From Thermoanaerobaculia bacterium (GTDB taxonomy: Bacteria > Acidobacteriota > Thermoanaerobaculia > UBA5066 > Gp7-AA6): a DNA stretch of 64,000 nt. Positions 15,212-62,891 of the stretch are shown here, piece by piece. How positions within the stretch are numbered: the first letter of the stretch is position 1; the number at the start of each line of letters is the position of its first letter. The notes below the pieces were generated by a model, which worked only from the letters and a program-made list of their open reading frames with translations, was not told the origin of the DNA and did not search any database. The DNA lies in contig JBGPCK010000002.1 of assembly GCA_041481715.1 (NCBI GenBank), positions 6,615 to 70,614 on the forward strand, in the 5' to 3' direction. Made by a program: the position numbers and the translations under genes.

Positions 15212-16024
15212 TCACGAAGGCCAGAGCGATCGGTAGCCTGAAAGCAGGGGCACGCCGAAAAAGTACGCGGCCACGGCGCCGATCGCGAGGAACACTCCGA
15301 AGGGAATTGCGGTCCGCAAGCCTCCCCGGCGCGCGAGGATCAGGAACAACCCGACGAGGCTTCCGAGAACCGAGGCGAAAAACACGGTGAGGAAGACGCC
15401 CCACGAACCCAAGAAGGCACCGATCATTCCGAGCATCTTCACGTCGCCTAAGCCCATCGCGTCGACGTCTCTCAGCTTGCTCCAGGTCCAGCCGACGAGA
15501 TAGAGCGAACCGGCTCCGATCGCCGCCCCGAGCAGCGCTTGCCGGGGCGTTCTCTGGAGGGAGAGAAAGGAGAGCAGGAGCCCCACGGCGATGCCGGGAA
15601 GCGTGATCGCGTCCGGCAGGAGCTGGACGTCGGCGTCGATCCAGGCCAGCGCCAGGCACGCCGAGCACAGGAAGGCTCCGGAAGCGAAGTCGACCCAGGA
15701 AGGCGCTTTCCAGAAGGCCGCGGCCCAGAGCGCGCCATTGCCAAGCTCCACGAGCGGGTAGCGCGCCGAGATCGGGGCGCCACACGCGCGGCAGCGGCCC
15801 CCGAGGAGAAGCCACGACAAGACCGGCATGTTGTCGAGCGGCCGGATCGGGGCGCCGCATGCCGGACAGTGGGAGCCCGGGTGCACGATCGACTCTTCGC
15901 GTGGCAGGCGATGGATCAGGACGTTCAAGAAGCTTCCGACGAGCAGGCCAAAGAGAGCCGCCGCCGCGACGCCGAAGGCGCCCAGCACAGGAAGCGGGGC
16001 CGCCGCGACGGACTCGAAGATCAG
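15212..16024 (-). CDS. pilD: Prepilin peptidase / N-methyltransferase (PilD family, A24)
   Basis: PilD signatures are present: GSFLNVLIHRLP, CPACGAPIRPLDNMPVLSWLLLGGRCRAC, GLGDVKMLGMIGAFLG and IPFGVFLAIG. The start is uncertain: CTG 16024 (CTGA overlap with the upstream stop), GTG 16063 or GTG 15988. Confidence 0.85.
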   Translation of the reverse strand: MIFESVAAAPLPVLGAFGVAAAALFGLLVGSFLNVLIHRLPREESIVHPGSHCPACGAPIRPLDNMPVLSWLLLGGRCRACGAPISARYPLVELGNGALWAAAFWKAPSWVDFASGAFLCSACLALAWIDADVQLLPDAITLPGIAVGLLLSFLSLQRTPRQALLGAAIGAGSLYLVGWTWSKLRDVDAMGLGDVKMLGMIGAFLGSWGVFLTVFFASVLGSLVGLFLILARRGGLRTAIPFGVFLAIGAVAAYFFGVPLLSGYRSLWPS

Positions 16025-18219
16025 GCGATCCTCCCCGCGCGCTCCGGCCGCGGGCGAGGCCACGCGAGCAGACCGATCAGGGCCGCAAGCGAAATCGCGG
16101 CCCCGGCATAGAACGAGAGAGGCCGGTAGCGGAACACGACGCGGTGTGATCCCGCGGGCACCGCGACTGCGCGAAAGAAGCCGTCGGCGGTCAGAATCCG
16201 CGCCGCACGGCCGTCGAGGGTGACGCCCCATCCCGGATACGCGAGGTCGGCCAGCACCAGAATTCCCGGGGCGTCGGCCGAGACCTCTGCCACGACGCGC
16301 TCGGGCCGCTCCTCGACGATTCCGGTGACCACGTAACGCCCTGGCGCCGCCTGCGGGCGGGGCGAAGGCTCGCGGTCGAGCAGCACGCGCCGGTTCCAGT
16401 CGCTTTCGCCGCGCGCCACGCGGGACCATGCCCGCGCGGCGTCCGGCTCCACGGCGTACTCACCGACGAAGGAGACCCGCGGCCGGTAGGGATTCAGAGG
16501 GGCGCGATAGAAGTCCCCGACCCTTCGGGAGCCGAGTCCCACGGGCGGAAAGGGCGTCCAGTAGATGCGGCCGCTCGCGGCCCCGGCAGGTCGGGCCGGG
16601 TCTTCTCCGCCGTCGATCGCGTCCGCGATGCGTCGCGCGGCCTCCGTCGGGAGGGCAGCCGCCGTGCGAACCGTGCGCACGCCGGCCAGCAAGTTCGTGT
16701 ATCCGATGAGGGCCTCGCGCTGACGACGGACCATCGCCGAGTCGAAGGTCCAGTCGCGCGTCACCCACGGGGCCAGCTCGCTCATCGGCGGGGTCAGAGT
16801 CCTACCCGGCACGCGCGCGAGAAAGTCGCTGGTCTCGGGGCGGCGCCGGATCTCTTCCCCCGCCACGAATCGAAAGACCGCGCGGTTGGCCAGCGCGAAG
16901 GAGGCTACGAGGCAGAGCGACGCGATGCCCGCGAGCGCGCCGCCCGCGAGGCGAAACCGCGGGCGCAGGAGGGCGAGCGCCAAGAGCGCCGCGGCTCCCG
17001 AGCCGGTCACGGCGCGAAACGGAGCATCCTGCCTCGACAACGCCACGACCGCGATTCCCGCTGCGCCGGCCAGAAGCGCGAGGAGCAGCCGACGCCGCCG
17101 GTCCGCCAGGAAACGCAAGCTGTCCAGACCGAGGCCCGAAAGCGCCGCAAGGGAAAAGACCGTCGCGGTCAGGGCCTTGGCAGGGTACCGGATGCGGTTC
17201 AAACCCGGCAGCTCGCGCAGCCATGTGCCCGGAGGCGCGGCCGCCGCGAGCACCACGCCGGCCGCCGCAACTGCGGCGAGAAGCCAGACGAGGCCGCGGC
17301 GCTCCCGCTCGGCGAAGGCGGCAGCCGCCGCGGCGAGCGGGATCGGCCCGAGAAACAGCGAAGCGAAGAAGAAGTTGCCCAGAGAGTCCTCTCCTGCGCC
17401 GAGCGCGGAAACGAGCGCCCCGCTCCGCACGGCTCCGATGTCGCGCTCTACAGCGGGAAAGGGCGCGCGGCGCTCCGAGCGCAGGGCCAACTCCGCCATC
17501 GGCACGAGCACCCACGCCGCAAGCGCCAGCCCGAGGAAGGCGGCCGCCACGCCGCGGCGCAAGCTTTCCCGCGGCGTGGTCTCCTTCCAGCCACCCGAAG
17601 ACTCCTTCCGGCGGAACCGGAGGAAGAGCAGGGCGAGGGCAAGCGTGCCCAGAGAGAGCTCCGGGCTACCGGCCATGGCCTGCAGGCCCACGAGCAGGGC
17701 GAATCCGGCCCCGGCCGCACGCGAGCGCAGACCCGACCGCGCCAGAGCCAGGATCGCGGGCAGGTAGGCGAAGGCGCCAAAGTGATTCCAGTAGGCCGAG
17801 AGCGAGGCCGCCGGACCGGAGGACGCAAACACCGCCGCGGCGGCCAGCGCACCGGCGTCGGTGACTCCCTCCTCCTTGCAGAAGCGCCACATGCCCCAGC
17901 TGGCGATCGCGAAGTGAAGCAGCAGAAAGAGCCCAGCCGCGAGCGCCGGCGAGGGGATCAGGAAGAACAGGCTCGGCGGATAGAAGACCCCCGACTGGGC
18001 ATTGGCGAGCCAAGGCTCTCCGACGCCGGACAGAGGATTCCAGAGCGGGATCTCTCCCGAAAGGAGCCGGTCCGCCGTGTAGAGCTTGACGGGGAAGAAG
18101 AAGTCCGCCTGGTCGCGAAACGTCGGCGCCCGGCCCCAGAGGAGGGATGGACCCAGCCAGAGAACCGGAGGAATCAGCGCCGCGGCAGCGAGAACGCCCG
18201 AATGAAACGCGCGGCGCAC
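16021..18219 (-). CDS. YfhO-like GT-C membrane glycosyltransferase
   Basis: The 732-aa polytopic product has a GTG start. Its N-terminal signature is FRDQADFFFPVKLYTADRLLSGEIPLWNPLSGVGEPWLANAQSGVFYPP. The C-terminal domain (YPGWGVTLDGRAARIL...VPAGSHRVVFRYRP plus a final TM) is shared with four paralogs in the window. Confidence 0.75.
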   Translation of the reverse strand: MRRAFHSGVLAAAALIPPVLWLGPSLLWGRAPTFRDQADFFFPVKLYTADRLLSGEIPLWNPLSGVGEPWLANAQSGVFYPPSLFFLIPSPALAAGLFLLLHFAIASWGMWRFCKEEGVTDAGALAAAAVFASSGPAASLSAYWNHFGAFAYLPAILALARSGLRSRAAGAGFALLVGLQAMAGSPELSLGTLALALLFLRFRRKESSGGWKETTPRESLRRGVAAAFLGLALAAWVLVPMAELALRSERRAPFPAVERDIGAVRSGALVSALGAGEDSLGNFFFASLFLGPIPLAAAAAAFAERERRGLVWLLAAVAAAGVVLAAAAPPGTWLRELPGLNRIRYPAKALTATVFSLAALSGLGLDSLRFLADRRRRLLLALLAGAAGIAVVALSRQDAPFRAVTGSGAAALLALALLRPRFRLAGGALAGIASLCLVASFALANRAVFRFVAGEEIRRRPETSDFLARVPGRTLTPPMSELAPWVTRDWTFDSAMVRRQREALIGYTNLLAGVRTVRTAAALPTEAARRIADAIDGGEDPARPAGAASGRIYWTPFPPVGLGSRRVGDFYRAPLNPYRPRVSFVGEYAVEPDAARAWSRVARGESDWNRRVLLDREPSPRPQAAPGRYVVTGIVEERPERVVAEVSADAPGILVLADLAYPGWGVTLDGRAARILTADGFFRAVAVPAGSHRVVFRYRPLSFYAGAAISLAALIGLLAWPRPRPERAGRIA

Positions 18220-18261: not shown

Positions 18262-18744
18262 CTACTGCTGCGCCCCTTCCGGCCATTGGACGAACGTGCC
18301 GTTGGAATAGAGGATGTCGTCGTTGAAGTCGGTCGTCGTGCCGCAAACGAATCCGTCCGCCGCCCCGTTGCGGCCAAGGCTTCGGATGTTGTACCGGAAG
18401 AGGGCGTTGTCCACCGCGTACGCCATGAAGCGCCCCCAGCCGTCCTGCAAGGGGGCGTGCGCGATGTAAGTCGGCGTCAGATTCGTGAAGGAGGAGAGGT
18501 TGAGCGGGTTCCCCGAGACCGTGAAGGTTCCGGGGTTGCAGGCGGCCGACGGGTAGAAGTTGTTGTCCACGCTGTAGGTCTCGATCGCGGTCGCCAGCGC
18601 CCGCATGTCGGACATGGTCCGCTTCTGCTTGCCCCTCTGCACGGCGTTGAGCAGGTTCGGGATCGCGATTGCCGCCAGGATGCCGATGATCGCGATCACG
18701 ATCAGCAACTCGATCAGAGTGAAGCCTCGTTCTCGTTTCTTCAT
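18262..18744 (-). CDS. Prepilin-type protein (type IV pilin / GspG-like pseudopilin), copy 1
   Basis: The ATG at 18744 gives MKKRERGFTLIELLIVIAIIGILAAIAIPN, a class III signal with G-1/F+1/E+5. The product is 160 aa with two Cys residues in the C-terminal half. Confidence 0.85.
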   Translation of the reverse strand: MKKRERGFTLIELLIVIAIIGILAAIAIPNLLNAVQRGKQKRTMSDMRALATAIETYSVDNNFYPSAACNPGTFTVSGNPLNLSSFTNLTPTYIAHAPLQDGWGRFMAYAVDNALFRYNIRSLGRNGAADGFVCGTTTDFNDDILYSNGTFVQWPEGAQQ

Positions 18745-18779
18745 GAAAAAAGCGGTCCCGACCGTACGCCGGGACCGCT
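18745..18779 (-). terminator. Intrinsic terminator/attenuator between the two pilin genes
   Basis: The minus strand reads AGCGGTCCC-(11 nt)-GGGACCGCT followed by TTTTTC, running directly into the ATG of pilin copy 1. A second hairpin, CTCCGCG-GAC-GCGGAG, lies at 18804..18819. Confidence 0.55.
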
Positions 18780-18824
18780 TCTCCTTACCGGTTGAGACGC
18801 TCACTCCGCGTCCGCGGAGAAAGG

Positions 18825-19316
18825 TTACTGCTGTGTACCCTCAGGCCACTGGATGAAAGTTCCGTCGGCGTAGAGGATGTCGTCGTTGAAGTCGGTCGTC
18901 GTGCCGCAGTTGACCGTGCCCGAGAACGACCCGTCGCGGCCGCCGGACTCGAGACGGTAGTTGTTCGAGGCGCCGTCGATCGCATAGCGCATGAACCGGC
19001 CCCAGCCGTCCTGCCGCGGAACCTGAGCGATGTAGGTCGGCTGCAGGTTCGTGAACGAGGAGAGGTTCAGGACGTTCGCCGTGCCGTTTGTGAAGAGACC
19101 CGCGTTGCAGGCCGCCGCCGGGTAGTAGTTGTTGTCGACCGCGTACGACTCGATCGCGGTCGCGACCGCACGCATGTCCGACATCGTCCGCTTCTGCTTG
19201 CCCCTCTGCACGGCGTTCAACAGATTGGGGATCGCGATGGCGGCCAAAATGCCGATGATCGCGATGACGATCAAGAGCTCGATCAGGGTAAAACCAGCTT
19301 CCCGCTTCTTCATCAT
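18825..19316 (-). CDS. Prepilin-type protein (type IV pilin / GspG-like pseudopilin), copy 2
   Basis: GGAGG lies upstream. The product starts MMKKREAGFTLIELLIVIAIIGILAAIAIPN. It is a paralog of 18262..18744 with a near-identical N-terminal 60 aa and C-terminal CGTTTDFNDDILY..GTF.QWPEG.QQ. Confidence 0.85.
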   Translation of the reverse strand: MMKKREAGFTLIELLIVIAIIGILAAIAIPNLLNAVQRGKQKRTMSDMRAVATAIESYAVDNNYYPAAACNAGLFTNGTANVLNLSSFTNLQPTYIAQVPRQDGWGRFMRYAIDGASNNYRLESGGRDGSFSGTVNCGTTTDFNDDILYADGTFIQWPEGTQQ

Positions 19317-19647: not shown

Positions 19648-21039
19648 CTAGCGCGGCCGCGCTTCAACTGCATACTCGGCGACGATGTCGGCGTAGAGCG
19701 CCAGGCCGTTCAGGTAATCGCGCAGGAAGACACGCTCGTCATTTCCGTGACGGCGAACCGAGTCCGTGATGTTCATCGGCATCGGCGAATAACCGTACGC
19801 CGGGATTCCCTTCTGGCGGAAATGGATCGACGTCGTGTAGGCCGCGAAGGTCGGGACCGGGCCGAAGGGGATGCCAGGGTAACGCGCTTGTGTCACGCGC
19901 TTGAGCAGCTCGGTGAAAGGCGTCGGGTAGGGACTGGCGCCCGTGGGCCCTGTCGTGTAGGACCAGACGGCCGAGACCCGCAAGACCGACGCGTCCCGGA
20001 GAATCGGAGCGAGGTAGACGCCCGGGTCGACCCCCGGAGGCGTTGAAATGATTACGTACGCGCGCAGACTGTCCCGCGCGTCCGGCGGGTCGGGGAAGGG
20101 AGGCGTCCAGAAGACCCGCGCCTCGAGAAAGGCGCCGTAGCGGTCGGGCAGCGCTGCGAGCTCGGCGGGATTGCGGCGCACGCGGTCGAGATGCCGCAGC
20201 GGATCCGTCAGGGGGTTCACGAGATGATTGGCGAGCAGGTCGAACCCCAGAACGACGTGTGGGTGTGGCTCGACGGGTGTCGAGGAAAGTTTTTTCCATT
20301 TGGCCGCCAGCTCTTCGAGCGGCCTTCCCGCCGTCGCGGCGAACTCCGCCGAGGCGTAACCGGCCTGCAGCGTCTCAAGGCCCCAGAAGCGCACGTCGCG
20401 CACGACCATCTCGGTCGTTCCGCCCTCGTTCAGAACGGCGGCCACCCCCGCAAACCACTCCGGCCGGTGATCCAGAAGCCACTTCGAGCCCCAGCGCTGC
20501 CCGAGCTCCTCGTCCGCCTCGGCGAGGAACAGGATGTCCGACTCCGGAACGACACCGTGCCGCTTGAGGTCGCGCAGCGCCAGGGCCTGGGCGAGCCCGA
20601 GCGATTTCATGTCGTACGCGCCGCGCCCGTAGAGGTAACCGCGCTTGATCGCGCCTTCGAAAGGGGCGGCCTCCTTCCAGAGCGCGGGGTAGGCGTCAAC
20701 CACGTCGATGTGGTTCAAGAGCAAGAGCGCCCCCTCGCGCCTCTTGCCCGGCAGGCGCGCAAGCAGATTGCAACGCCCCGGGGCCGGGCAGACGATCTCG
20801 GTCTCGATCCCTTCGCAGTCCAGTAGCTCCTTGAGGAAGCGAGCGCCCGCCTCCTCCGTCTTTCCCTGAGACGTGTCGATCCGGACGTAGTCCCGGAGCA
20901 GGCGGACGGACTCGAACTTCAACCACTGCGCGGCCGGGCGGGTCGTGTCCGACTCGATCCGGGAGACGGGCTTCTCCTTGCGCGCGCAGGCGGCCGCGGC
21001 GAGCAGCGCGAGAAGGAGTCGGGCCGGGCGTCGCATCAT
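19648..21039 (-). CDS. M20-family metallopeptidase/amidohydrolase lipoprotein
   Basis: The ATG at 21039 overlaps the upstream stop (ATGA). The product starts MMRRPARLLLALLAAAAC (lipobox). Metal-binding motifs NHIDVV, GRGAYDMKS and EADEELG are present. Confidence 0.8.
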   Translation of the reverse strand: MMRRPARLLLALLAAAACARKEKPVSRIESDTTRPAAQWLKFESVRLLRDYVRIDTSQGKTEEAGARFLKELLDCEGIETEIVCPAPGRCNLLARLPGKRREGALLLLNHIDVVDAYPALWKEAAPFEGAIKRGYLYGRGAYDMKSLGLAQALALRDLKRHGVVPESDILFLAEADEELGQRWGSKWLLDHRPEWFAGVAAVLNEGGTTEMVVRDVRFWGLETLQAGYASAEFAATAGRPLEELAAKWKKLSSTPVEPHPHVVLGFDLLANHLVNPLTDPLRHLDRVRRNPAELAALPDRYGAFLEARVFWTPPFPDPPDARDSLRAYVIISTPPGVDPGVYLAPILRDASVLRVSAVWSYTTGPTGASPYPTPFTELLKRVTQARYPGIPFGPVPTFAAYTTSIHFRQKGIPAYGYSPMPMNITDSVRRHGNDERVFLRDYLNGLALYADIVAEYAVEARPR

Positions 21040-23351
21040 GTCCGCTTCTGACGAGAACCGGAAACGAAGATGAGGACCGCCGCCATTCCCGCGGCGAGCG
21101 GCCCGAGGCGCGTGGACTCTCCGCCCGGCACGCGCTCCTGCCAGTCGACCGCGTGGCGCCCCGCCGGGACGGGAATCGCCGTGTACGCCAGGTATGCGGG
21201 GACCGCCTCGACCTCCCGGCCGTCGATCGAGACCGTTCGGTAGCTCCAGAACGCGCGCAGGACGAAGAGCCACGCGGGCCGGGACGTTTCGGTCTGGAGC
21301 CGCAGGCGCTCCGGGCTCTTCTCGAGGATCCGGAGAAGTCCCGGAGGCGCCTCTCCCCGGGCACGGCGCCCCGTCTCGAGCAGCAGCTCGCCGCGGCCCA
21401 TGCTCGCAAGCTCGGCGGCGGCTTCCAGCGCGCCAGGCTCCTCTTTCCAGCGCGTCGCCAGCCGGATGTCCGGCTGCGCCCCATCCTGCTCGTCCCATTC
21501 CTGCGCGGCGTTGCCGCCGACCGGGTGGAATCCGGCGACCGGCGGCTGGCCGCGCGGGCGCACGCCGAACTTCAGGCAGAGGTTTTCGAAGAGGACGCCG
21601 CCGTCGGGAGCTCCCGCGGCGAGGCCGGACAGGCGCCGGAGGCTCTCCACCCGCGAAACGTCGCCCGCATCGAAGTCGTAGTTGAAGACCGTGCCCCGGC
21701 CCCAGAATACGGGCGTGTAGTAGATCCAGCTCTCTCGCGGCAGCTCCGCCCAGCCCAGGCCCGTGCGCCCCGCAGTCTCTCCCGGCGATGCGTAGATCGA
21801 CTCTCCCAGCGTGCGGAAGGCGCCCTCGGCGTCGGCGCTCGCGATCCGGCGCGCCAGCCGCGTCGGCCCGAAGGCCTCGAGCTCGGTCGACACTTCCGGT
21901 ATCCGCCGGGTGGCGGCCATGGGAACCAGTGTCAGAAGCAACAGCGCCGCGGACCTCGCCCAGAGCGCCGGACGCCGCGCGAGCTCGATCGCGATGACCG
22001 TCGCGACCCAGAGGAGTCCCCCCTCGGCCAGCGCCCAGGGCAACTGCACGGCTGCGAAGTGAGGGAGCGGGGCGCCCCCCGCCAGCAACCCGCCGGCGAT
22101 CCGCGCCGCTTCGGAAGGCCAGAGCGCCGTCAGACCGGCGGCCAGGGCGAGCAGCGCGGCAATCGCAAGGCTCCCGCGCGGCCGCCGCCCTTCACCGCGG
22201 TAGACGTCGAAGGCGCGCGCCGCCATTAGCGCCATCGCCAGTGCCGCGGCCACGGCGAGCTTTTCGGGGTTGCGCAGAGCCACAGGAGACACGACGCGGC
22301 CAAAGCCTTGCGGAAGCAGGCTCGGCAGAATGGAGGCGGCCAGGCCGAAGAGCAGCAGGATGCGCGCGAACCGCGCGCCCCGCTCCTTCCTTCTCCACAT
22401 CGTTCCCGCGCCCATCGCCGCGAGCGCCCCTGCGTAGAGCGTCGAGAAGAGGCCCATTGCCTTGTCGCCGAAGGCGCGCCATCCCCAGACCTCCGAGGGC
22501 GTCAGGCGCCAGGTCTCCCCGAAGGGATACGGCACGACGAGCTCGGCGAGCCTCCACGGAGATACCGAGAATCGGGTCACCTCGGCAAGGCGCAGACCCA
22601 GAACGGCGCGGTTGGTCTCGGGAATCCAGAGCGCCGTTGCCACGATCTGAGGAAGCGCGGCGAGCACCGCGAGACCGAGCGCGACAGAGAGCCGAGCCAG
22701 GGCCGCGCTGCGCTCGACCCGGGGCATCTCGATCGCGATCCAGAGGGCGGCGCCGAAGACGCCGAGCGCCACCGTGAAGACGTCGGCGGCCAGCAGATCG
22801 AGCGCGAAGAGGAATGCCAGCGCGAGCGTCTGCGCCGCGGGTCGCTTCCATGGCCGGGCGGCCGCCCAGACGAGCCACGGCAGCAGCGTCATTCCCGGCA
22901 GGATGTGCGGGTAGAAGACTTCCGAAACGGCGACGCCCGAGAAGGCATAGGTGACCGCGCCGAGCCACGCGGCGCCAGCCGAGGCGGAGAGCGCGCGAAG
23001 CAGCAGCAGCGTCCCGATTCCAGCGGCGGCCCAATGCAGGAGCGGGTAGAGGCGCATGGCGAGCGGGAACGGCAGGCGGGAAAGCAGCGGCCGCACGGGA
23101 TAGAGAGAGCCGGTATTGGGATTGGGGAGGAGCGGCCGTCCGCCGGAAACCTCGGGAGTCCAGACGGGGAGCCGGCCGCGAGCGTACGCGTCGTGGATCG
23201 ATTTCTCCAGGGGCAGGTTGTAGGCGAGCAGGTCCCTTCCCGTGAAGTTGCGCCGGAAGAAGAGCGGGCTCGCGTAGACCGCCACGACGAGGGCCGCAAA
23301 CAGGAGCGCCGCACCGAGCGAGCCCGGTGTCTCACGGGCCGGCCGGTTCAC
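21036..23351 (-). CDS. YfhO-like GT-C membrane glycosyltransferase (tandem paralog B)
   Basis: The GTG at 23351 overlaps the upstream stop (GTGA). The N-terminus (FRRNFTGRDLLAYNLPLEKSIHDAYARGRLPVWTPEVSGGRPLLPNPNTGSLYP) is collinear with 23348..25741. The 155 upstream codons of the track ORF overlap the preceding gene. Confidence 0.75.
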   Translation of the reverse strand: MNRPARETPGSLGAALLFAALVVAVYASPLFFRRNFTGRDLLAYNLPLEKSIHDAYARGRLPVWTPEVSGGRPLLPNPNTGSLYPVRPLLSRLPFPLAMRLYPLLHWAAAGIGTLLLLRALSASAGAAWLGAVTYAFSGVAVSEVFYPHILPGMTLLPWLVWAAARPWKRPAAQTLALAFLFALDLLAADVFTVALGVFGAALWIAIEMPRVERSAALARLSVALGLAVLAALPQIVATALWIPETNRAVLGLRLAEVTRFSVSPWRLAELVVPYPFGETWRLTPSEVWGWRAFGDKAMGLFSTLYAGALAAMGAGTMWRRKERGARFARILLLFGLAASILPSLLPQGFGRVVSPVALRNPEKLAVAAALAMALMAARAFDVYRGEGRRPRGSLAIAALLALAAGLTALWPSEAARIAGGLLAGGAPLPHFAAVQLPWALAEGGLLWVATVIAIELARRPALWARSAALLLLTLVPMAATRRIPEVSTELEAFGPTRLARRIASADAEGAFRTLGESIYASPGETAGRTGLGWAELPRESWIYYTPVFWGRGTVFNYDFDAGDVSRVESLRRLSGLAAGAPDGGVLFENLCLKFGVRPRGQPPVAGFHPVGGNAAQEWDEQDGAQPDIRLATRWKEEPGALEAAAELASMGRGELLLETGRRARGEAPPGLLRILEKSPERLRLQTETSRPAWLFVLRAFWSYRTVSIDGREVEAVPAYLAYTAIPVPAGRHAVDWQERVPGGESTRLGPLAAGMAAVLIFVSGSRQKRT

Positions 23352-25741: not shown

Positions 25742-25758
25742 ACCGCCCGGGTCCGCCC

Positions 25759-49915: not shown

Positions 49916-49916
<1 letters not shown>
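49876..49916 (+). promoter_or_regulatory. Candidate aceB promoter with an overlapping perfect palindrome (operator candidate)
   Basis: TTGACG (49876..49881), a 17-nt spacer, then GATATT (49899..49904). The palindrome TGTGAAAG-N9-CTTTCACA (49892..49916) ends on the A of the aceB ATG. This is the only strongly AT-rich stretch in the window. Confidence 0.5.
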
Positions 49917-51580
<1,664 letters not shown>

Positions 51581-51600
51581 GAACGAGGGAGGAAAGCATC

Positions 51601-52872
51601 ATGCAGCCCAAGGACGCCCGCCTCATCCGCGAAGACTGGAAGGAGAACGCGCGCTGGGACGGGACCTGCCGTCCCTACTCGGCGGATGACGTCGTTCGGC
51701 TGCGCGGCTCGGTCGAGATCAAGCACACGCTGGCGGAGATGGGCGCCCACCGCCTCTGGTATCTCCTGCACACCGAGGAATACGTCGCCGCGCTCGGAGC
51801 CCTGACGGGCAATCAGGCGATGCAGCAGGTGAAGGCGGGGCTCAAGGCCATCTACCTCTCCGGCTGGCAGGTCGCGGCCGACGCGAACCTCTCCGGCCAC
51901 ATGTACCCGGATCAGAGCCTCTATCCGGCCAACAGCGTCCCCGAGGTCGTGAAGAAAATCAATCGCGCCCTTCAGCGCGCCGACCAGATCCACCATGCCG
52001 AAGGGAAGAACGGCATCTACTGGTTCGCGCCGATCGTGGCCGACGCCGAGGCTGGCTTCGGCGGGCCCCTGAATGCCTTCGAGCTGATGAAGGGAATGAT
52101 CGAGGCAGGCGCCGCGGCCGTCCACTTCGAAGACCAGCTCGCCTCGGAGAAGAAGTGCGGGCACATGGGAGGCAAGGTTCTCATCCCGACCTCCGCCTTC
52201 CTCCGCACCCTCGTGGCGGCGCGCCTCGCGGCGGACGTCTCCGGCGTGCCGACCCTCATCGTTGCGCGCACCGACGCGAACAGCGCCCAGTTGATCACGA
52301 GCGACATCGACGAGCGGGACCGTCCCTTCCTGAGCGGCGAAAGGACGGCCGAGGGCTTCTTCCGCATGCGGGGCGGTCTCGAGGCGGCCATCGCGCGCGC
52401 CATTTCCTACGCGCCGCATGCGGACCTGATCTGGTGCGAGACCTCGGAGCCGAATCTCGAGGAAGCCGGGCGGTTCGCGGCCGCGGTGCATGCGCGCTTC
52501 CCCGGCAAGCTCCTCGCCTACAACTGCTCGCCGTCCTTCAACTGGAAGAAGAAGCTCGACGCCGACACGATCCGCCGCTTCCAGGTCGAGCTTTCCAAGA
52601 TGGGCTACAAGTTCCAGTTCGTGACCCTCGCCGGCTTTCATGCGTTGAACCACGGCATGTTCGAGCTCGCCCGAGCCTATAAGGAGGAGGGCATGACGGC
52701 CTACTCGCGCCTTCAGGAGGCGGAGTTCGAGAGCGAGGCCCACGGCTACTCGGCCACGCGGCACCAGAGAGAAGTCGGGACCGGCTACTTCGACGACGTC
52801 GGGATGGTCGTCGGCGGCGGGCTCACCGCCACCTCGGCGCTGAAGGGCTCAACCGAGGAAGCTCAGTTCTGA
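51601..52872 (+). CDS. aceA: Isocitrate lyase
   Basis: The ATG at 51601 follows GGGAGG. The catalytic motif KKCGHMGGK is present, along with [19 protein letters not shown] and ARTDA. The upstream part of the track ORF overlaps aceB. Confidence 0.9.
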
Positions 52873-57058: not shown

Positions 57059-57199
57059 CGTCTCCTCCTTCTGCTTTTTTCGGGCGCGGACAATATCAGA
57101 GTGCTTTCGGCTGCGGCGGTCGTGGACGACCGGCAGCCGAGAGTTTCAAGACGAGAGCTCGGATCCGGGCCAGAAACTCTCTGCCGCCGTTCGCGTAGC

Positions 57200-57260
57200 G
57201 AACGCCTGCGGCCGAAAGCCAGCCACGACGCCCGCATCCATATCTTCAGCACCCTGCTAG
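57200..57260. repeat. R2 repeat, copy 2
   Basis: The sequence is gaacgcctgcggccgaaagccagccacgacgcccgcatccatatcttcagcaccctgctag. Its terminal ctag contains the TAG stop (57259..57257) of the adjacent minus-strand gene. Confidence 0.75.
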
Positions 57261-57828: not shown

Positions 57829-59331
57829 TCAGACCCCCGGTGACGCGGCGGGACGTCCCGCGGGGGGACCCTGAGCGCCAAACCGGCTGTGCCGGTACCC
57901 GTAGAAGAAGTAGAGGACCAGACCGATCGCCAACCACACCCCGAACCGGATCCACGTGGCCAGCGGCAGCTCGCACATGAGATAGACGCAGACGACGATG
58001 CCCGCCAGCGGCACCCAGGGCACGAACGGTGTACGGAAGGGGCGCTTGCGGTCCGGGTCCTTGTAGCGAAGGATCATCACCCCGGCGCAGACGAGAACGA
58101 ACGCGAAGAGCGTTCCGATGTTGGTCAGCTCGACGAAGACGTCCAGATTCGCCACCGCCGCGAGGACCCCCACGACGACGCCCGTCCAGATCGTCGTGAT
58201 GTGGGGCGTGCGGTACTTGGGGTGGATCCGGGCAAACGAGGGGGGAAGCAGGCCGTCGCGCGCCATCGAAAAGAAGATCCGCGGCTGGCCGTACTGGAAG
58301 ACGAGGAGCACCGCCGTCGTCGCGATGACGGCGCCGAAGGCGACGACCCCGGCCGCCCAGTCCATCCCCAGCAGTGAAAACGCCTTGGCGAGCGGCTCGC
58401 TCGACCCCTGAATCTGCGACAGCGGCACGATCCCCGTAAGGACGAGCGAAGTCGCGATATAGAGCACCGAGCAGATGCCGAGCGATCCCAGCATTCCGAT
58501 CGGCATGTCCTTCTGCGGGTTGCGGCACTCTTCGGCCGCGGTCGAGACCGCGTCGAATCCGATGTAAGCGAAGAAGATCAGCGCCGCCCCCGAGCCGATG
58601 CCCGCCCAGCCGCTCGGCGCGAAGGGATGCCAGTTGGAAGGCTTGATATAGAAGGCGCCCACGACGATGAAGAAGAGCAGGATGCAGATCTTGACCGCGA
58701 CCATGATGTCGTTGAAGCGCGAGGATTCCTTGACGCCGATCACGAGGACCCAGGTGACCAACGCCACGATCAAGATCGCGGGCAGGTTGAAGACGATCGG
58801 GATCCCACCCACGTGCGGCGCGGCGTCCATGAAGCCCGGCGTCCGCAAGGCAGTCCGCAGGTCGGTCTGGAGCCAGAGCGGCACGTTGATCCCGAGCCCC
58901 TTCAACAGCTCACAGAAGTAGCCCGACCAGGAAACGGCGACCGCGACATTGCCCATCGCGTACTCGATGATGAGGTCCCAGCCGATGATCCAGGCCACGA
59001 GCTCCCCCAGCGTGGCCGCCGAGTACGTATAGGCGCTCCCGGAGATGGGCACCAGCGCCGCGAACTCCGCGTAACAGAGCGCGCAGAAGCCGCATCCGAT
59101 CGCCGTTATGAGGATCGAGATCACGAGCGCCGGCCCCGCCCCCGGGTGGTTCGCGCCCCCGGCCGCGGCCGTCCCGATCACCGCGAAGATCCCCGCGCCC
59201 ACGACCGCGCCGACGCCGAGCGAAATGAGCTGCCACGGCCCGAGCACCCGCTTCAACTGGTGCTCCTTCTTCTCGGCGTCGACCATGATCGCATCGAGCG
59301 ATTTGGTCCGGAAGAGCCGGCTGGTGCTCAA
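57829..59331 (-). CDS. APC-superfamily amino acid permease (cationic amino acid transporter-like)
   Basis: The 500-aa product has about 12-14 TM segments and an N-terminal LKRVLGPWQLISLGVGAVVGAGIF signature. Confidence 0.85.
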   Translation of the reverse strand: MSTSRLFRTKSLDAIMVDAEKKEHQLKRVLGPWQLISLGVGAVVGAGIFAVIGTAAAGGANHPGAGPALVISILITAIGCGFCALCYAEFAALVPISGSAYTYSAATLGELVAWIIGWDLIIEYAMGNVAVAVSWSGYFCELLKGLGINVPLWLQTDLRTALRTPGFMDAAPHVGGIPIVFNLPAILIVALVTWVLVIGVKESSRFNDIMVAVKICILLFFIVVGAFYIKPSNWHPFAPSGWAGIGSGAALIFFAYIGFDAVSTAAEECRNPQKDMPIGMLGSLGICSVLYIATSLVLTGIVPLSQIQGSSEPLAKAFSLLGMDWAAGVVAFGAVIATTAVLLVFQYGQPRIFFSMARDGLLPPSFARIHPKYRTPHITTIWTGVVVGVLAAVANLDVFVELTNIGTLFAFVLVCAGVMILRYKDPDRKRPFRTPFVPWVPLAGIVVCVYLMCELPLATWIRFGVWLAIGLVLYFFYGYRHSRFGAQGPPAGRPAASPGV

Positions 59332-59368
59332 ACGGGAGGCAGAATAGCAGAGTCCTCGAAAAAACCGG

Positions 59369-60055
59369 TCAAAGACCGAGCCGGCCGGGCACTTCCGTCA
59401 AGCTGCCGATCCGGTCCGCGAGCCCATCGTGCCGTCCCGCCCGGTCGAGCAGCAGGGCCTCGAGCCCCGCCCCGCGCGCCCCTTCGTAGTCCTCGCGAGG
59501 GGAATCGCCCACGTGGAGCGCCTCCGCCGGCAAGACATCCAGGCGGGCGCAGGCCCGTCGGAAAATTTCGGGATCGGGCTTGCCGGTCTTCTCGACGGCG
59601 GAGACCAGAACCGCGTCGAATCGCGGCGCGAGGTCGTGGGCGGACAGAAGCGCCGGGAGATGCGAGTCCCAGTTCGAAACGACGGCCAGCCGCAGTCCCG
59701 CCGCCGCGAGGCGGTCGAGGCTGGACTCGACGTCCGGGTAGATCGCCCACGAGGCCGGGTCGCGAAAGTGACTCGCAAGCCGCCCGAAAGCCTCCGCCGA
59801 AACGACGCCCCCGTCCAGAGACGCGCGCACGCGGTTCAGGAACCCGCGCCAGAACTGCGACTCTCCCTGCACGCCGCCGTACCGATCTCCTGCGGCGGTG
59901 GCGTGGACCTGTGCCCAGGCCTGCGAAAGCGCGCCGTCGAGATCGGCTTGTGAGAACCGCGCCCCATCCGCCGCGAGCTCCAGCGCGTAAACTTGCTCCA
60001 CCGGAGGGTCCGGGTGAAGCAGCGTCGCGCCGGCGTCGAAGAGAACCGCGCGGAT
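59369..60055 (-). CDS. HAD-superfamily hydrolase (start codon unresolved)
   Basis: Motif I is VLFDAGATLL, motif II is VVSNWD, and motifs III/IV are KTGKPDPEIF...HVGDSPREDYEGA. There is no ATG, GTG or TTG between the upstream stop at 60061 and motif I. The nearest in-frame candidates are an ATC at 60055 or a CTG further upstream inside the preceding gene. Confidence 0.6.
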   Translation of the reverse strand: MRAVLFDAGATLLHPDPPVEQVYALELAADGARFSQADLDGALSQAWAQVHATAAGDRYGGVQGESQFWRGFLNRVRASLDGGVVSAEAFGRLASHFRDPASWAIYPDVESSLDRLAAAGLRLAVVSNWDSHLPALLSAHDLAPRFDAVLVSAVEKTGKPDPEIFRRACARLDVLPAEALHVGDSPREDYEGARGAGLEALLLDRAGRHDGLADRIGSLTEVPGRLGL

Positions 60056-60060
60056 CGCGC

Positions 60061-60738
60061 CTAGGCTCGTCCGATCTCCCGCATCACGCCATCGAGCGCA
60101 CGGTTCAATGCGTCGAGACAGCGCTCCGCGGCCCGGAGGGCACGTTCCCGCTCCGACGGCGTCGCCGCGACGCGCCCCAGGGCCTGCCGCTCCACCTGCC
60201 GGTGCCACACGTCCGCCTGCTCGTGGACGGTGAAGAAACGGGTCGCCTCGGAGTCCCGAACGCCGTAGAAGGCCGCGAGCCCTTCGCGCTTCGTCTTGGC
60301 GATCTCCGGAATTTGCGACTCGTAGGCGTAGAGCGCCGCGAGCCCTTCGGCCACACAGCTCGAGCGCGTCGTGCGCAAGAATTCCTCGACCGCGGCTCCG
60401 ACTTCCGGCGTCCGGGGAGAGGCCGCGAGATCGGATTCGGCTGCGCCGAGCGACGCCGCGAACTTTCGCCAGAGAGCGGGATGATTGTCGCTGCCCCGCT
60501 CCTCCTCGATCAGATTCTCGAGCAACTCCTGCCGCAGCGCCGCGTCCTCGCACGCCGCATGGACTCCGGAGACGTAGCGCGGGAAGTTGGCCACCTGCGG
60601 ATAGTAGGAAATCGCGTATTCGCGCAAGTCGTCCCGGGTCAGCTTCCCTTCGTTCCAGAGCACGTAGAAGGGGTGCTTCAGAAGATGCTTTTCGGCCACC
60701 AGAGCGTCGAGTCTTGCCAGAAATTCTTCTCGGTCCAT
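60061..60738 (-). CDS. Haem-oxygenase-like fold protein (PqqC/TenA/CADD family)
   Basis: The 225-aa product carries HPFYVLWNEGKLTRDDLREYAISYYPQV, EEERGSDNHPALW and LYAYESQIPEI, which resemble PqqC/CADD-type di-iron/haem-oxygenase-like proteins. Confidence 0.65.
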   Translation of the reverse strand: MDREEFLARLDALVAEKHLLKHPFYVLWNEGKLTRDDLREYAISYYPQVANFPRYVSGVHAACEDAALRQELLENLIEEERGSDNHPALWRKFAASLGAAESDLAASPRTPEVGAAVEEFLRTTRSSCVAEGLAALYAYESQIPEIAKTKREGLAAFYGVRDSEATRFFTVHEQADVWHRQVERQALGRVAATPSERERALRAAERCLDALNRALDGVMREIGRA

Positions 60739-60788
60739 CTCGTCTCCTCAAAGGCGCGAGCCTCTATGGCGGCGCCGGCGTTGGGCGC

Positions 60789-62891
60789 CTAAGTTAGCAC
60801 TTCGCGGCCGGTCCGGGTCGCAAAAAGAATCAGCGCGAGCACGCCGGCGACCGAGAGGCCCAGACCCTGCCAGAGGCCCCGCGGGTGATACTCGAAGACG
60901 ACGCGGTGATTTCCCGCCGGAACACGCACGCCGCGAAAGGCGTAATCCGTGCGAAAGACCTCGGCCGGCCGCCCTTCCAGCCGCGCCTTCCATCCCTCTT
61001 CGTATGCGTCGAAGAGCACCAGCACCCGCTCGCCCGGCGCGCTCGTCGCAAGCTCCAGCCGCGCGGGGCGGCGCGAGAGGAGCCGAACCACGCCCGAGGG
61101 CTGCGCACCCCCGGCCGAAAACGGCGGCGCACCCTCGACGACCGCGACCCGGCGGGGATCGAGGCCCGGGGCGAGCGTCGTAGCCAGGACCGCCGCCGGA
61201 GCCGGCGCGATCGCCTCCGAGACGAGAAGAGCCCGAGGCAGCGCCGCGAGGGTCCGCACCTCGAGACCAGGCGGCGCCGGTGAGGGCGATCCGGCCTCTT
61301 GCGGCCGCGCGATCACGACCGCGCCGACGCCGGCGAGCTCGGCCGCGCGCGCGCTGGGCGGCAGGAAAATCTTCTCCGTCGCCTCGAGCGGAGGCCCCCC
61401 GCCCGAAACCGACTCCAGACCGAAGCGGATCGCAAGCGCGCCCTGGAGTGGCTCACGGCGCCGGGCGACCGCGGGCTTTTCCGAATCAGGGTAAGCGAGC
61501 AGGTTCAGGGCAGGGGCGAGCGACCAGAGGCGGCGGGGGAATCCCGCCTCGTCCTTACCGAGCACGCGGCGCAACTGCGACACGACCTCAGGTTCCGCTG
61601 TCGCGAGCGCGGCAGGAGCCGTCGGGGCGGCGCGCCGGGCGTGCCAGGTCAGATCCGCCGCAATGAAAACCAGCACCGCCAGAGCGAACGGGCGAGCGCG
61701 CGGGAGCCTCCGCAGGATGGCGGCCAGCGAGAGCGCCGAACCAAGCGCCAGAGCGAGCGACCAGGAGACGAGGTACCGCGCCGGCACCCGAAATCCCCGG
61801 ATCAGCGGAAGACCCGCGACGAACCGATAGAGACCCTTCTCGCCGAAGGCGAAGAGGAGGCCAACGAGCCCTCCGGCGAAAAGGGCCAGGAACAGAGCGC
61901 GGGGAAAGCCAGGCTCGTTACGCAGCGCGAGCGCGATCCCCGCCAGAAACAGCAGCCCCGTGGCGAGCCCCGGGTATGCCGCGGCCTCGGGCCAGCGCGG
62001 AGCGCCGTCCACCGGCAGGAAAACGAGGTCCAGGCCTTCTCCCACGCCGATCGGGTTGAGGTCGCGATCCGCGCGAGAGAGACCTCCCGCGCGCGACATC
62101 TCCGGGTAGAGCGCGGCGCTCGGCAGAAGCGAGGCTCCTCCCAGCGCCAGCGCCAGGGCCGCCGCGAGAGCCAGATCGGCGCTCGCCCGGAGGCGTCCCT
62201 GCGCGAGAAGGACGCCGGCGAGCGCGGCCGCCGCCACGAGGGGCGCCGCCCCGAGCATCACATGGGGGCGCGCCGCCAGGATCGCCAACCCGCCCGAGAC
62301 GGCGGCGATCGGCACGCCGGACCGCGGCCGGCCGCGGGCGACGCGGAAGATCCCGAGAAGGGTGAGCGGCAACAGCGCCGAGACGGCAACCGCGTTGGGC
62401 CAGATGGCGCTCTGGATGAGGCGCGCCGAGAGCATCCAGGCGACTCCCCCGAAGAGGGCGGAGAAGTCGTCCGCGTCCAGGTCCCGAAGCAGCAGGTACG
62501 CGGCGAACCCGGCCAGCCAATAGTGAAAGAGAGAGAAGAGGTCCGACAGGCGCTCGACCGGCGCGCCCGTCAGCAGCAGCGGCACGGTCAGGGGGTAGAA
62601 GACCGGCGCCTCCTGATGAAACAACATCGGGTGCCCGCAATACTCGCCGTCGATCCAGAAGGGCGGATCTCCGTTGCGGAGCGACTCCTGCGTGACCTGC
62701 CAGACCGGCAGGTGCTCGTAGCGCAGGTCCAGGTGGAAGAAGTGGCGCGCCCCCGAAACGACCGGCCAGAACGCGACCACGACGAGCACCGCGAGCAGAA
62801 GGCCCGCGATGGAGACCGACCGGGGAAGCGTGGAGCCGAACGATAGGCCGGGGTTCGTGCCGCTTGCCCGGCCTCGGAATGCCAGACTCAC
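60789..62891 (-). CDS. YfhO-like GT-C membrane glycosyltransferase
   Basis: The GTG start lies 4 nt after the SDR stop. The signature is FFHLDLRYEHLPVWQVTQESLRNGDPPFWIDGEYCGHPMLFHQEAPVFYP, with the C-terminal YEEGWKARLEGRPAEVF...VPAGNHRVVFEYHP domain. Confidence 0.75.
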   Translation of the reverse strand: MSLAFRGRASGTNPGLSFGSTLPRSVSIAGLLLAVLVVVAFWPVVSGARHFFHLDLRYEHLPVWQVTQESLRNGDPPFWIDGEYCGHPMLFHQEAPVFYPLTVPLLLTGAPVERLSDLFSLFHYWLAGFAAYLLLRDLDADDFSALFGGVAWMLSARLIQSAIWPNAVAVSALLPLTLLGIFRVARGRPRSGVPIAAVSGGLAILAARPHVMLGAAPLVAAAALAGVLLAQGRLRASADLALAAALALALGGASLLPSAALYPEMSRAGGLSRADRDLNPIGVGEGLDLVFLPVDGAPRWPEAAAYPGLATGLLFLAGIALALRNEPGFPRALFLALFAGGLVGLLFAFGEKGLYRFVAGLPLIRGFRVPARYLVSWSLALALGSALSLAAILRRLPRARPFALAVLVFIAADLTWHARRAAPTAPAALATAEPEVVSQLRRVLGKDEAGFPRRLWSLAPALNLLAYPDSEKPAVARRREPLQGALAIRFGLESVSGGGPPLEATEKIFLPPSARAAELAGVGAVVIARPQEAGSPSPAPPGLEVRTLAALPRALLVSEAIAPAPAAVLATTLAPGLDPRRVAVVEGAPPFSAGGAQPSGVVRLLSRRPARLELATSAPGERVLVLFDAYEEGWKARLEGRPAEVFRTDYAFRGVRVPAGNHRVVFEYHPRGLWQGLGLSVAGVLALILFATRTGREVLT

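Follow-up and report, generated by a model that had tools for sequence, protein, structure and literature searches.

What may be the function of a region in which ten large membrane proteins, all resembling glycosyltransferases of the GT-C type, are encoded within a single run of genes? The question is raised by a stretch of 64,000 nucleotides, here called the window, from a Thermoanaerobaculia bacterium of the phylum Acidobacteriota (assembly GCA_041481715.1, contig JBGPCK010000002.1, positions 6,615 to 70,614 of the forward strand). Periplasmic glycosylation fed by polyprenyl phosphates is usually a decoration, carried out by one synthase and one transferase; known examples of dense GT-C assembly lines come chiefly from the cell wall of mycobacteria and from the eukaryotic endoplasmic reticulum (ER). 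The reading favoured here, with a probability of roughly 0.6, is that of a lineage-specific, modular supercluster, whose products would act at the outer side of the cytoplasmic membrane and glycosylate molecules of the envelope, using sugars carried by polyprenyl phosphate. All of its components are of known kinds; new are the density and the diversity of GT-C-type proteins in a lineage of the Gram-negative type, an unnamed GT-C family (P3), a clade of AglB-like enzymes lacking the WWD motif, and the presence of a YfhO-type gene between pilin and prepilin peptidase genes.

Ten GT-C-type genes in one cluster

Eleven large open reading frames (ORFs) encoding polytopic proteins had been called in the initial annotation: all exist at the positions reported in Table 1, and their sum, 20.4 kb, is as had been calculated. 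All 11 use the frame with a high G+C content at third codon positions (0.82-0.87) and encode 7-11 hydrophobic segments each; the G+C content of the window is 69%, and its coding frames stand out by third-position values of 0.80-0.91. Ten of the 11 are included in a cluster of about 32 kb, formed by 24 consecutive genes (15.2-47.4 kb), which follow one another as listed in Table 1. The eleventh, Y5, had been assigned to the same region; it is unlinked, and is left outside the cluster because the 13 kb in between hold unrelated genes.

All 24 cluster genes were scanned against Pfam, and most of them also against NCBIfam. Instead of the four families previously proposed for the 11 proteins, six sequence families are found: YfhO-like (Y1 to Y5), PMT_2 (P2), P1, P3, GT87-like (D1 and D2) and STT3-like (S1). 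In every family an invariant acidic residue is located, according to the predicted topology, a few residues past the first hydrophobic segment: D65 in the YfhO-like proteins (Y3 numbering), D27 and E28 in P1, D33 and E34 in P2 (where P35 and H37 are also invariant), D35 in the GT87-like pair and D42 in S1. P3 features invariant E61 and D62, along with E32, found in at least 90% of its members. Evidence from Pfam, from homology or from the fold, available for all six families, supports the GT-C type of these proteins, and is weakest for P1 and the GT87-like pair.

The YfhO-like family

That five of the genes are YfhO-like is borne out by their homology over the full length, though the Pfam threshold (PF09586, a family of the GT-C clan; 28.5 bits) is passed by Y1 and Y5 alone. 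Y4 stays below it, while Y2 and Y3 do not match the model; among the orthologs of Y2 and Y3, 12 out of 32 do (E<=0.01). Pfam matches span mostly the last 50-80 residues or so of these proteins. Mutual homology, in contrast, extends from end to end, as indicated by BLASTP and by hhalign (98.4-99.9% over about 615-700 columns; 99.9% for Y2/Y3 against Y4, 98.4% for Y2/Y3 against Y5, 99.8% for Y4 against Y1). A profile built on the five paralogs retrieved 73,520 representative proteins from a library of 1.84 billion. Ten distant full-length homologs match YfhO and no other Pfam family, nine of them above threshold; one (P0460) aligns to positions 3-385 of the YfhO hidden Markov model, corresponding to the membrane half, and the other nine to positions 755-835. 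Because of this end-to-end homology, and of full-length homologs matching YfhO alone, Y1 to Y5 are classified, on sequence grounds, as one divergent YfhO branch. Of the motifs originally quoted for the family, the aspartate of the first loop, G..P, G.P, YP and VP.G.H.V are invariant; the tryptophan and NP are not.

Structural support for the family is slight. The AlphaFold2 model of Y4, obtained from an alignment of the five window paralogs, was searched by Foldseek: the top matches are AftA, STT3 and ArnT, with TM scores of 0.22-0.30, to be taken as weak hints given the low confidence of the model. Searches of the Protein Data Bank (PDB) with sequence profiles, either from the Y2/Y3 alignment or from that of the five paralogs, gave nothing meaningful.

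P1, P2 and P3

P1, P2 and P3 had been described together as three PMT_2/ArnT-like proteins. The description holds for P2, the only one of the three above the PMT_2 threshold (PF13231, 26.1 bits), and in part for P1, a remote relative; it fails for P3, which, like its 30 orthologs, has no Pfam match. The grouping was dropped, because no relationship among the three is found by hhalign: the value is 1% for P1 against P2, and below 1.5% for P3 against either of them. PDB profile searches with the alignments of P1, P2 and P3 gave nothing meaningful; for P3 the result was empty.

P1 has no Pfam match, either in the gene or in 29 orthologs. Its remote homologs P0340, P0343, P0345 and P0346 carry PMT_2 or are named GT39, as is P0346; in P0340, which carries PMT_2, the homology is full-length (36% identity over 473 residues). 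On this sequence evidence P1 may be regarded, with moderate confidence, as a remote PMT_2/GT39 relative.

For P3, a family of 31 members, a weak NCBIfam match is found to the putative transferases LA_3751/3752 of Leptospira. Its AlphaFold2 model has a predicted local distance difference test score (pLDDT) of 90.1 and a predicted TM score (pTM) of 0.92. When it is compared with the PDB by Foldseek, the first 24 matches are all GT-C enzymes, with probabilities from 0.82 up to the 1.0 reached by the top 14; TM scores are at best 0.42-0.49. ALG12, EmbA/B/C, AftB, AglB, ALG9, ArnT, Pmt4, STT3 and Pmt1-Pmt2 are found among them. As judged from the model, P3 adopts the GT-C fold and represents a family not yet named.

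The GT87-like pair

D1 and D2, formerly described as two DUF2029/GT87-like proteins, are indeed paralogs (37% identity), and 11 of the 32 members of their family match GT87 (E<=0.01, best 2.6e-6); neither of the two passes the Pfam threshold (PF09594, 25 bits). For D2 a weak match to DUF2079 is all that is found. The other family members match ALG6/8, PIG-U, PIG-V or DUF2079. Since GT87, ALG6/ALG8, PIG-U, PIG-V and DUF2079 all belong to the GT-C clan, these sequence matches support the placement of D1 and D2 within the clan, short of strict GT87 membership. A PDB profile search with the family alignment gave nothing meaningful.

D1 and P1, located on opposite strands, converge, and their 3' ends overlap by 149 nucleotides (27083-27231); the tail of P1 is rich in Pro and Ala. 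An identical 149-nucleotide overlap is present in the gene calls of a related 4.28-Mb genome (L002, 3657-5129 and 4981-6132).

An STT3/AglB-like enzyme without the WWD motif

The single STT3/AglB-like gene had been correctly recognised: S1 passes the Pfam cut-offs of both STT3 (47.2 bits against 24.5) and AglB_core (32.2 bits against 27). Its match to the NCBIfam model of the archaeosortase-A-associated oligosaccharyltransferase (TIGR04154, archaeo_STT3) covers residues 10-631 with 231.8 bits, below the cut-off of 450. With the S1 profile, an alignment is obtained to the short AglB proteins of Archaeoglobus fulgidus, in their C-terminal domains (3vgp, E 2.6e-15, and 3vu0), where APWSLGHLILY of S1 pairs with SWWDYGNWILY of AglB. 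In these oligosaccharyltransferases the Ser/Thr at sequon position +2 is bound by the WWD motif and the lysine of the DK motif; the acidic motifs serve to bind a metal ion and the amide of the acceptor.

The two groups of motifs behave differently in the S1 clade. The WWDYG site reads (A/G)PW(S/T/A)(L/M/A)GH in 69 of 70 orthologs, and WWD is found in none of the 70; at the DxxK position of the DK motif most orthologs have DSIR, where the lysine is replaced by arginine. The N-terminal DDxYH, HTDQHxxE and GIFE(A/T)RP, in which GIFE is what we take to be a TIXE-like motif, are kept in most orthologs. S1 is therefore probably, as far as motifs can tell, catalytically competent but devoid of N-X-S/T recognition; canonical N-X-S/T glycosylation by S1 is unlikely, because the WWD-based Ser/Thr pocket is missing. 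Such a clade could broaden the recognition range of oligosaccharyltransferases and could serve glycoengineering.

S1 homologs with 56-79% identity are annotated as proteins of Thermoanaerobaculia or Acidobacteriota metagenome-assembled genomes (MAGs). One MAG contains two S1 paralogs (L046, CAVUIX010000050.1, and L066, CAVUIX010000043.1): one of them is part of a typical cluster, while around the other no cluster genes are found up to 10 kb away in either direction.

Conservation and modularity

A scan restricted to one genome per species yielded 98 relatives, and the best 80 of the 98 loci were compared. All 80 belong to Acidobacteriota/Thermoanaerobaculia MAGs, several of them on contigs of 1-4.5 Mb. 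When the cluster proteins are searched by tblastn, one order recurs: Y2/Y3 (1-3 copies), P1, [D1, 0-2 copies], GT2-methyltransferase, P2, GT2, S1, P3, [Y4], [D2, 0-2 copies], [ArnD to ArnB], [PAP2, Wzt, Wzm], where brackets indicate variable elements and GT2 stands for glycosyltransferase family 2. Flanks of 10 kb are complete to the left and to the right in 43 loci; S1, the two GT2 genes, P1, P2, P3 and a minimum of one Y2/Y3 copy are each found in 39-43 of these. Counted up to 10 kb away from S1 in both directions, GT-C-like genes number from 1 to 10 per locus (median 7). The genes are thus linked, and in the same order, in 80 species-level genomes, so that their grouping is not due to chance; since six to eight core genes keep their order across these species at protein identities of 45-80%, the linkage appears to be under selection.

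Around this core, the content of the loci varies. In seven loci the Arn block is absent and D2 is directly followed by PAP2-Wzt-Wzm, the position of D2 being conserved with or without the block. In one locus (L135, 13670-22049) its place is taken by two epimerase/reductase-type genes (RmlD/GDP-Man-dehydratase-like), a 188-residue GT2, a stand-alone methyltransferase, and GT87-like and unknown genes; the exchange looks like the swapping of donor modules between serotypes. In another (L136) the cluster stops after Y4, and the adjacency of Wzm/Wzt varies among relatives. Copy numbers of the YfhO-like and GT87-like genes also differ between species. The locus accordingly consists of a fixed core with exchangeable modules, and does not behave like a single fixed assembly line; what is observed here comprises the modularity and synteny of the locus, its genes, and their assignment to families or folds.

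Homologs of the cluster proteins are named in databases either "hypothetical protein" or "STT3 domain-containing protein". In the literature searched, no paper was found linking Thermoanaerobaculia or Acidobacteriota with GT-C, STT3 or glycosyltransferases, or covering the cluster; nor was any characterised system of such composition found there, as the initial annotation had maintained.

Candidate genes for donor synthesis and export

Three GT2 genes had been read as synthases of polyprenyl-phosphate sugars, and their closest NCBIfam matches agree: AglJ, PpgS, dolichyl-phosphate (Dol-P)-hexose transferase and ArnC, all under the equivalog cut-offs. The GT2 domain of the methyltransferase fusion is a paralog of the short GT2, and neither protein is membrane-anchored, as in DPM1-type enzymes. 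The short GT2 matches AglJ (131.6 bits) and PpgS (92.6 bits), and looks, from its sequence, like a DPM1/AglJ-type polyprenyl-phosphate-hexose synthase; for the fusion protein the best matches are AglJ, Dol-P-hexose transferase, PpgS and ArnC. Both are well conserved in relatives, with identities of 76-93% and 75-91%, respectively. ArnC is the full-length match of the third GT2 (361 bits, the cut-off being 529), a protein with two C-terminal transmembrane segments, typical of ArnC/GtrB. At least three lipid-linked donors, putative ones, are plausible. At 29651-29654 and 31363-31366 the ends of GT2 and GT-C reading frames share a few bases, as in translationally coupled operons.

The remaining accessory genes (Arn-type enzymes, PAP2, Wzm and Wzt) are confirmed by Pfam and NCBIfam as announced, except that ArnA corresponds to two genes. 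The split ArnA activities pass their cut-offs (385 bits against 316 for PRK06988; 580 against 294 for PRK11908). ArnB (436 against 631) and ArnD (245 against 382) are the best matches of their genes, under the equivalog cut-offs. Sugar identities are therefore guesses, because GT2, ArnB, ArnC and ArnD all fall under these cut-offs. No small ORF of the small multidrug resistance (SMR) type, expected for ArnE/F, is found in the cluster. P2, the PMT_2 protein, is encoded in the core operon, and is retained in loci without the Arn block. A clue to the transferase of 4-amino-4-deoxy-L-arabinose (Ara4N) may come from D2, which ends the operon running from Wzm to the Arn genes; GT87-like genes are located inside the Arn block in many relatives, in a co-occurrence that is not strict.

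Wzm and Wzt are recognised as an ABC exporter, and among the top NCBIfam matches of Wzt is the galactan exporter of mycobacteria. The absence of Wzx, Wzy, WaaL and GT1/GT4 proteins, previously noted, is upheld: no such domain is detected by Pfam in any of the 24 cluster genes, nor is an initiating transferase (WecA/WbaP) or a Wzy_C domain.

The pilin unit

Y1 is located directly downstream of two tandem pseudopilin genes, and is followed by the prepilin peptidase gene. A metagenome scan with Y1 found the order Y3, Y2, M20, pseudopilin (1-3 copies), Y1, PilD in every sufficiently long locus; the segment psp-Y1-PilD, with 1-3 psp copies, is conserved in loci L085-L100. The two pseudopilins of the window, psp1 and psp2, are paralogs, both with a GFTLIE class III signal, and contain 2-3 N-X-S/T sequons each. 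From the position of its gene, Y1 most likely glycosylates the adjacent pilin-like proteins. Among the candidate acceptors, pilins are the only ones with positional support, from the psp-Y1-PilD operon; other acceptors would be conjectural. Canonical N-glycosylation of the pilins was considered as the principal explanation of the locus and rejected, given the absence of WWD in S1 and the lack of conserved sequons in the pilins.

The pilin-like proteins of the window and of loci L085-L103 share a near-identical N-terminal stretch of 60 residues, followed by a variable Ser/Thr-rich stretch and by a conserved SF(S/T)xL(S/T)PTYI. The M20 peptidase features the signal LLAAAAC, and its gene is kept between the YfhO-like pair and the pilins in all relatives examined. 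The PilD-like gene probably starts near 16050; a longer ORF, to 16429, would overlap Y1.

Proposed function and alternatives

In the favoured scheme, cytoplasmic GT2 enzymes would load single sugars onto polyprenyl phosphate. The two AglJ/DPM1-like synthases, one of them fused to a methyltransferase, would supply hexose-type donors; the ArnC-like GT2 would be fed by a complete pathway to UDP-4-deoxy-4-formamido-L-arabinose (UDP-Ara4FN), complemented by the ArnD deformylase. After flipping of the lipid-linked sugars, up to ten GT-C proteins, of six sequence families, would transfer them to acceptors. P1, the GT2-methyltransferase, the PMT_2 protein, the short GT2, the STT3-like protein, P3 and the YfhO-like genes would make up the invariant core, while the Arn block, the GT87-like copies and PAP2/Wzt/Wzm would be exchangeable accessories, altering the sugars or the polymer used. 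Y1 would be dedicated to the pilin-like proteins of the psp-Y1-PilD operon; S1, with its acidic catalytic motifs kept and the Ser/Thr(+2) pocket lost, would move a lipid-linked glycan to something beyond the N-X-S/T sequon. That GT2 enzymes make polyprenyl-phosphate sugars, and that GT-C proteins use them at the periplasmic face, is inferred from what is known of GT-C enzymes and of three-component systems; the identities of the donors, the topology, the acceptors and the order of the steps are inferred as well.

A number of points weigh against such a scheme. Co-location is no proof of a shared pathway, and all source genomes are MAGs. The assignments of P1 and of the GT87-like pair are based on sub-threshold or indirect evidence; the fold of the YfhO-like proteins is not modelled confidently (pLDDT 44.9 for Y4), and the matches of the GT2 proteins, ArnB, ArnC and ArnD are all sub-equivalog. 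No cluster gene matches the ArnT (GT83) model, so that no GT83 ArnT ortholog can be named; no flippase of the GtrA, SMR/ArnEF, MATE or Wzx type is found in the 24 genes, nor any unassigned ORF with multiple transmembrane segments, though another part of the genome may encode one. As for the pilins, their sequons lack conservation (on average 1.33 per mature pilin, with 0 as the minimum), and the glycosylated residue is not pinpointed by any evidence.

The same components might instead form one line, in the manner of the ER-lumenal ALG enzymes or of the mycobacterial arabinan/mannan enzymes: an oligosaccharide or polysaccharide on undecaprenyl diphosphate, exported by Wzm/Wzt, would be extended step by step by several GT-C proteins from polyprenyl-phosphate sugars and moved as a whole by the STT3-like protein, with PAP2 recycling the carrier. 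The resemblance of the P3 model to ALG12, ALG9, EmbB and AftB fits this possibility, as do the matches of GT87-like members to ALG6/8 and PIG-V, the mycobacterial galactan exporter among the best matches of Wzt, and the sharing of one region by the STT3-like protein, PAP2 and a Wzt with a carbohydrate-binding domain. It is nonetheless considered unlikely: Wzm/Wzt and PAP2 are not always beside the core (L136 being an example), GT-C copy numbers differ between species, and the cluster contains neither an initiating phosphoglycosyltransferase nor a cytoplasmic polymerising transferase; no donor genes of the decaprenyl-phosphate-arabinose (DPA) or phosphoribosyl-pyrophosphate type were found. Equally doubtful is a related view, limited to the core, which would be a bacterial counterpart of ER-lumenal assembly: DPM1/AglJ-like synthases would provide the polyprenyl-phosphate sugars, several ALG-, PMT- and YfhO-like GT-C proteins would use them to lengthen a lipid-linked glycan in the periplasm, and the AglB-derived STT3 would transfer it whole. 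If this were true, S1 would represent a new acceptor-specificity class of STT3, acting on non-sequon sites of proteins or on a non-protein acceptor.

An archaeal type of N-glycosylation, acquired by bacteria, in which AglJ-like synthases and GT-C proteins build a glycan and the AglB-like enzyme attaches it to Asn of pilins or secreted proteins, is quite improbable. S1 is closest to archaeal AglB models and structures, most of its orthologs keep the three acidic motifs and the GT2 enzymes are most similar to AglJ; archaeal AglB glycosylates pilins and archaellins, and sequons are present in the two pilins of the window. The replacement of WWDYG in 69 of 70 orthologs, with the DK-motif lysine mostly changed to arginine, speaks against it, as does the lack of sequon conservation; moreover, the gene tied by position to the pilins is Y1, not S1. 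Least credible of all is a co-location of unrelated envelope functions, not coupled to one another, with Arn serving lipid A, Wzm/Wzt exporting an O-antigen or a teichoic-acid-like polymer, and the other polytopic proteins being miscellaneous, or no transferases. Modules do vary independently among relatives, and several family assignments are sub-threshold; yet a core order of six to eight genes, maintained over 80 species, is hard to explain without selection for linkage, overlaps of GT2 and GT-C genes suggest translational coupling, and some GT-C evidence is available for all six families. Returning to the modular supercluster, its ten GT-C proteins, in a widespread uncultured soil lineage, suggest an envelope glycoconjugate built or decorated largely outside the cytoplasm; leads for further work are P3, as an unnamed GT-C family, the S1 clade of STT3/AglB-like proteins lacking the WWD pocket, and Y1, as a candidate pilin glycosyltransferase of the YfhO type.

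Comparison with known systems

Multi-component systems pairing a GT2 with a GT-C protein are known: GtrA/GtrB/Gtr*, CsbB/GtcA/YfhO and the GT136 pentofuranose systems (PMC8035078, PMC11127046). There, as may be the case here, a GT2 makes the polyprenyl-phosphate monosaccharide, and an adjacent YfhO- or PMT_2-type GT-C transfers the sugar outside the cytoplasm. Such systems, however, consist of one GT2, one GT-C and a flippase, while the cluster features three GT2 and ten GT-C genes of six families, with no flippase gene; it adds an STT3-like enzyme and an ABC exporter, and its YfhO relatives are very divergent.

The Arn pathway (PmrHFIJKLM) modifies lipid A with L-Ara4N in Proteobacteria. Its ArnB-like, ArnC-like, formyltransferase, UDP-4-keto-pentose synthase and ArnD-like components are found here in one operon; in contrast to that pathway, ArnA is split in two, a GT83 ArnT ortholog and ArnE/F are missing, the block is optional among relatives, and the operon starts with Wzm/Wzt/PAP2 and ends in a GT87-like GT-C.

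Many GT-C proteins, an exporter and polyprenyl-phosphate-sugar synthases are also combined in the mycobacterial assembly of arabinogalactan and lipoarabinomannan (Emb, Aft, PimE/GT87, PpgS and Rv3779, Wzm/Wzt), a likeness extended by the GT87-like members and by the PpgS-like GT2 match. The cluster differs in lacking decaprenyl-phosphate-arabinose genes (UbiA-type, DprE1/2) and GlfT-type polymerases, in containing an STT3-like gene, and in its host, an Acidobacterium of the Gram-negative type; no orthology to Emb or Aft is apparent at the sequence level. With the archaeal AglB system (AglJ, AglP, AglS and AglB of Haloferax) it shares an AglB-like STT3, AglJ-like Dol-P-hexose synthases, a methyltransferase and extracytoplasmic GT-C proteins, together with pilin-like proteins and a prepilin peptidase nearby; here, however, the host is bacterial, WWDYG is not conserved, the TIGR04154 match is 232 bits against the 450 needed, and GT-C proteins are far more numerous.

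For Y1, a parallel in gene position is offered by tfpW, responsible for pilin arabinosylation in group IV Pseudomonas aeruginosa, which lies directly downstream of pilA, with genes for lipid-linked sugar donors nearby in some species (bioRxiv 10.1101/2020.04.19.049825). The Y1 gene, likewise coding for a GT-C protein, directly follows a pilin gene; Y1 differs from TfpW in being YfhO-like rather than Emb-like, in the absence of a TPR domain detectable by Pfam, and in the T2SS-G-like type of its pilins.

Table 1. Cluster genes and the unlinked gene Y5: position in the window, strand, and supporting matches or remarks
Gene product	Position	Strand	Matches and remarks
Prepilin peptidase, PilD-like	15212-16050	-	Pfam A24_N_bact 121.8 bits, Peptidase_A24 69.4 bits
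Y1, YfhO-like GT-C, 732 aa	16021-18219	-	Pfam YfhO 35.1 bits
psp1, pseudopilin/type IV pilin-like	18262-18804	-	Pfam N_methyl and T2SSG
psp2, pseudopilin/type IV pilin-like	18825-19316	-	Pfam N_methyl and T2SSG
M20-family peptidase, lipoprotein-type signal	19648-21069	-	Pfam Peptidase_M20 89 bits
Y2, YfhO-like GT-C, 771 aa	21036-23351	-	51% identity to Y3, full length
Y3, YfhO-like GT-C, 797 aa	23348-25741	-	first ~35 residues may be untranslated
P1, polytopic, 490 aa	25759-27231	+	invariant W-x-D-E after first transmembrane segment; possible remote PMT_2/GT39 relative
D1, GT87-like GT-C, about 383-397 aa	27083-28276	-	Pfam GT87 20.6 bits, sub-threshold
GT2 fused to S-adenosylmethionine-dependent methyltransferase, 465 aa, no transmembrane anchor	28257-29654	-	Pfam Glycos_transf_2 132 bits and Methyltransf_23/12/11
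P2, PMT_2-family GT-C, 571 aa	29651-31366	-	Pfam PMT_2 36.8 bits, PMT 33.0 bits
Short GT2, 232 aa, no transmembrane segment	31363-32061	-	Pfam GT2 125 bits
S1, STT3/AglB-like GT-C, 671 aa	32230-34245	+	Pfam STT3 and AglB_core; PWSLGH at WWDYG site
P3, GT-C-fold protein (from model), 524 aa	34317-35891	-	AlphaFold2 and Foldseek; family without Pfam model
Y4, YfhO-like GT-C, 795 aa	35972-38359	+	Pfam YfhO 18.1 bits, sub-threshold; hhalign
D2, GT87-like GT-C, 363 aa	38474-39565	-	paralog of D1; last gene of Wzm-Wzt-PAP2-(Arn) operon
ArnD-like deformylase	39562-40476	-	NCBIfam ArnD 245 bits
UDP-4-keto-pentose synthase	40485 to ~41513	-	NCBIfam PRK11908 580 bits
Formyltransferase	41510 to ~42421	-	NCBIfam PRK06988 385 bits
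ArnC-like GT2, two transmembrane segments	42462-43439	-	NCBIfam ArnC 361 bits
ArnB-like aminotransferase	43436-44599	-	NCBIfam ArnB 436 bits
PAP2 phosphatase	44614-45300	-	Pfam PAP2
Wzt ABC ATPase, C-terminal carbohydrate-binding domain	45305-46654	-	Pfam ABC_tran 76.9 bits, Wzt_C 79.7 bits
Wzm permease	46591-47385	-	Pfam ABC2_membrane 59.6 bits
Y5, unlinked YfhO-like GT-C, 700 aa	60789-62891	-	Pfam YfhO 48.8 bits

Neighbouring genes and repeats

The genes before 15 kb are metabolism genes, unrelated to the cluster. Beyond 47.4 kb an ABC ATPase, an ScfR-type regulator, malate synthase, isocitrate lyase and a MacB/FtsX permease are found, followed by a CrtC-like gene, an amino-acid permease and a TenA-like gene. 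The ABC ATPase (about 47600-48234, + strand), of the LolD/MacB type, with Walker A GPSGGGKS and signature LSGGEMQ, had been missed both by the filter on third-position G+C content and by the initial annotation. An ORF on the opposite strand (47461-48309), considered as an additional cluster gene, was rejected as its antisense shadow, and so was the ORF at 58627-60792 (+ strand), an antisense shadow of real genes. At 48349-52872 the ScfR-type regulator, featuring helix-turn-helix, M78 peptidase and ScfRs domains, is divergent from malate synthase and isocitrate lyase; the segment has the look of a regulated unit for the glyoxylate shunt and bears no relation to the cluster.

A palindromic element of 62-87 nucleotides, similar to repetitive extragenic palindromic (REP) sequences, is present in three copies (14996-15082, 38378-38439 and 48265-48351), each intergenic, at gene 3' ends, and able to fold as a hairpin. 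The outer copies flank the cluster, at a distance of 33 kb, in inverted orientation and with 94% complementarity. A mobile island delimited by these inverted 87-nucleotide repeats was considered and rejected: a third copy lies inside the cluster, and each copy is palindromic and located at a gene 3' end; the uniform G+C content and the synteny of the cluster across species also argue against it. Rather than marking the edges of an island, the repeats probably represent a terminator or a REP-like element. Finally, a direct repeat of 50 nucleotides, with 90% identity, is found in two distant intergenic regions, at 15134-15183 and 57192-57241.

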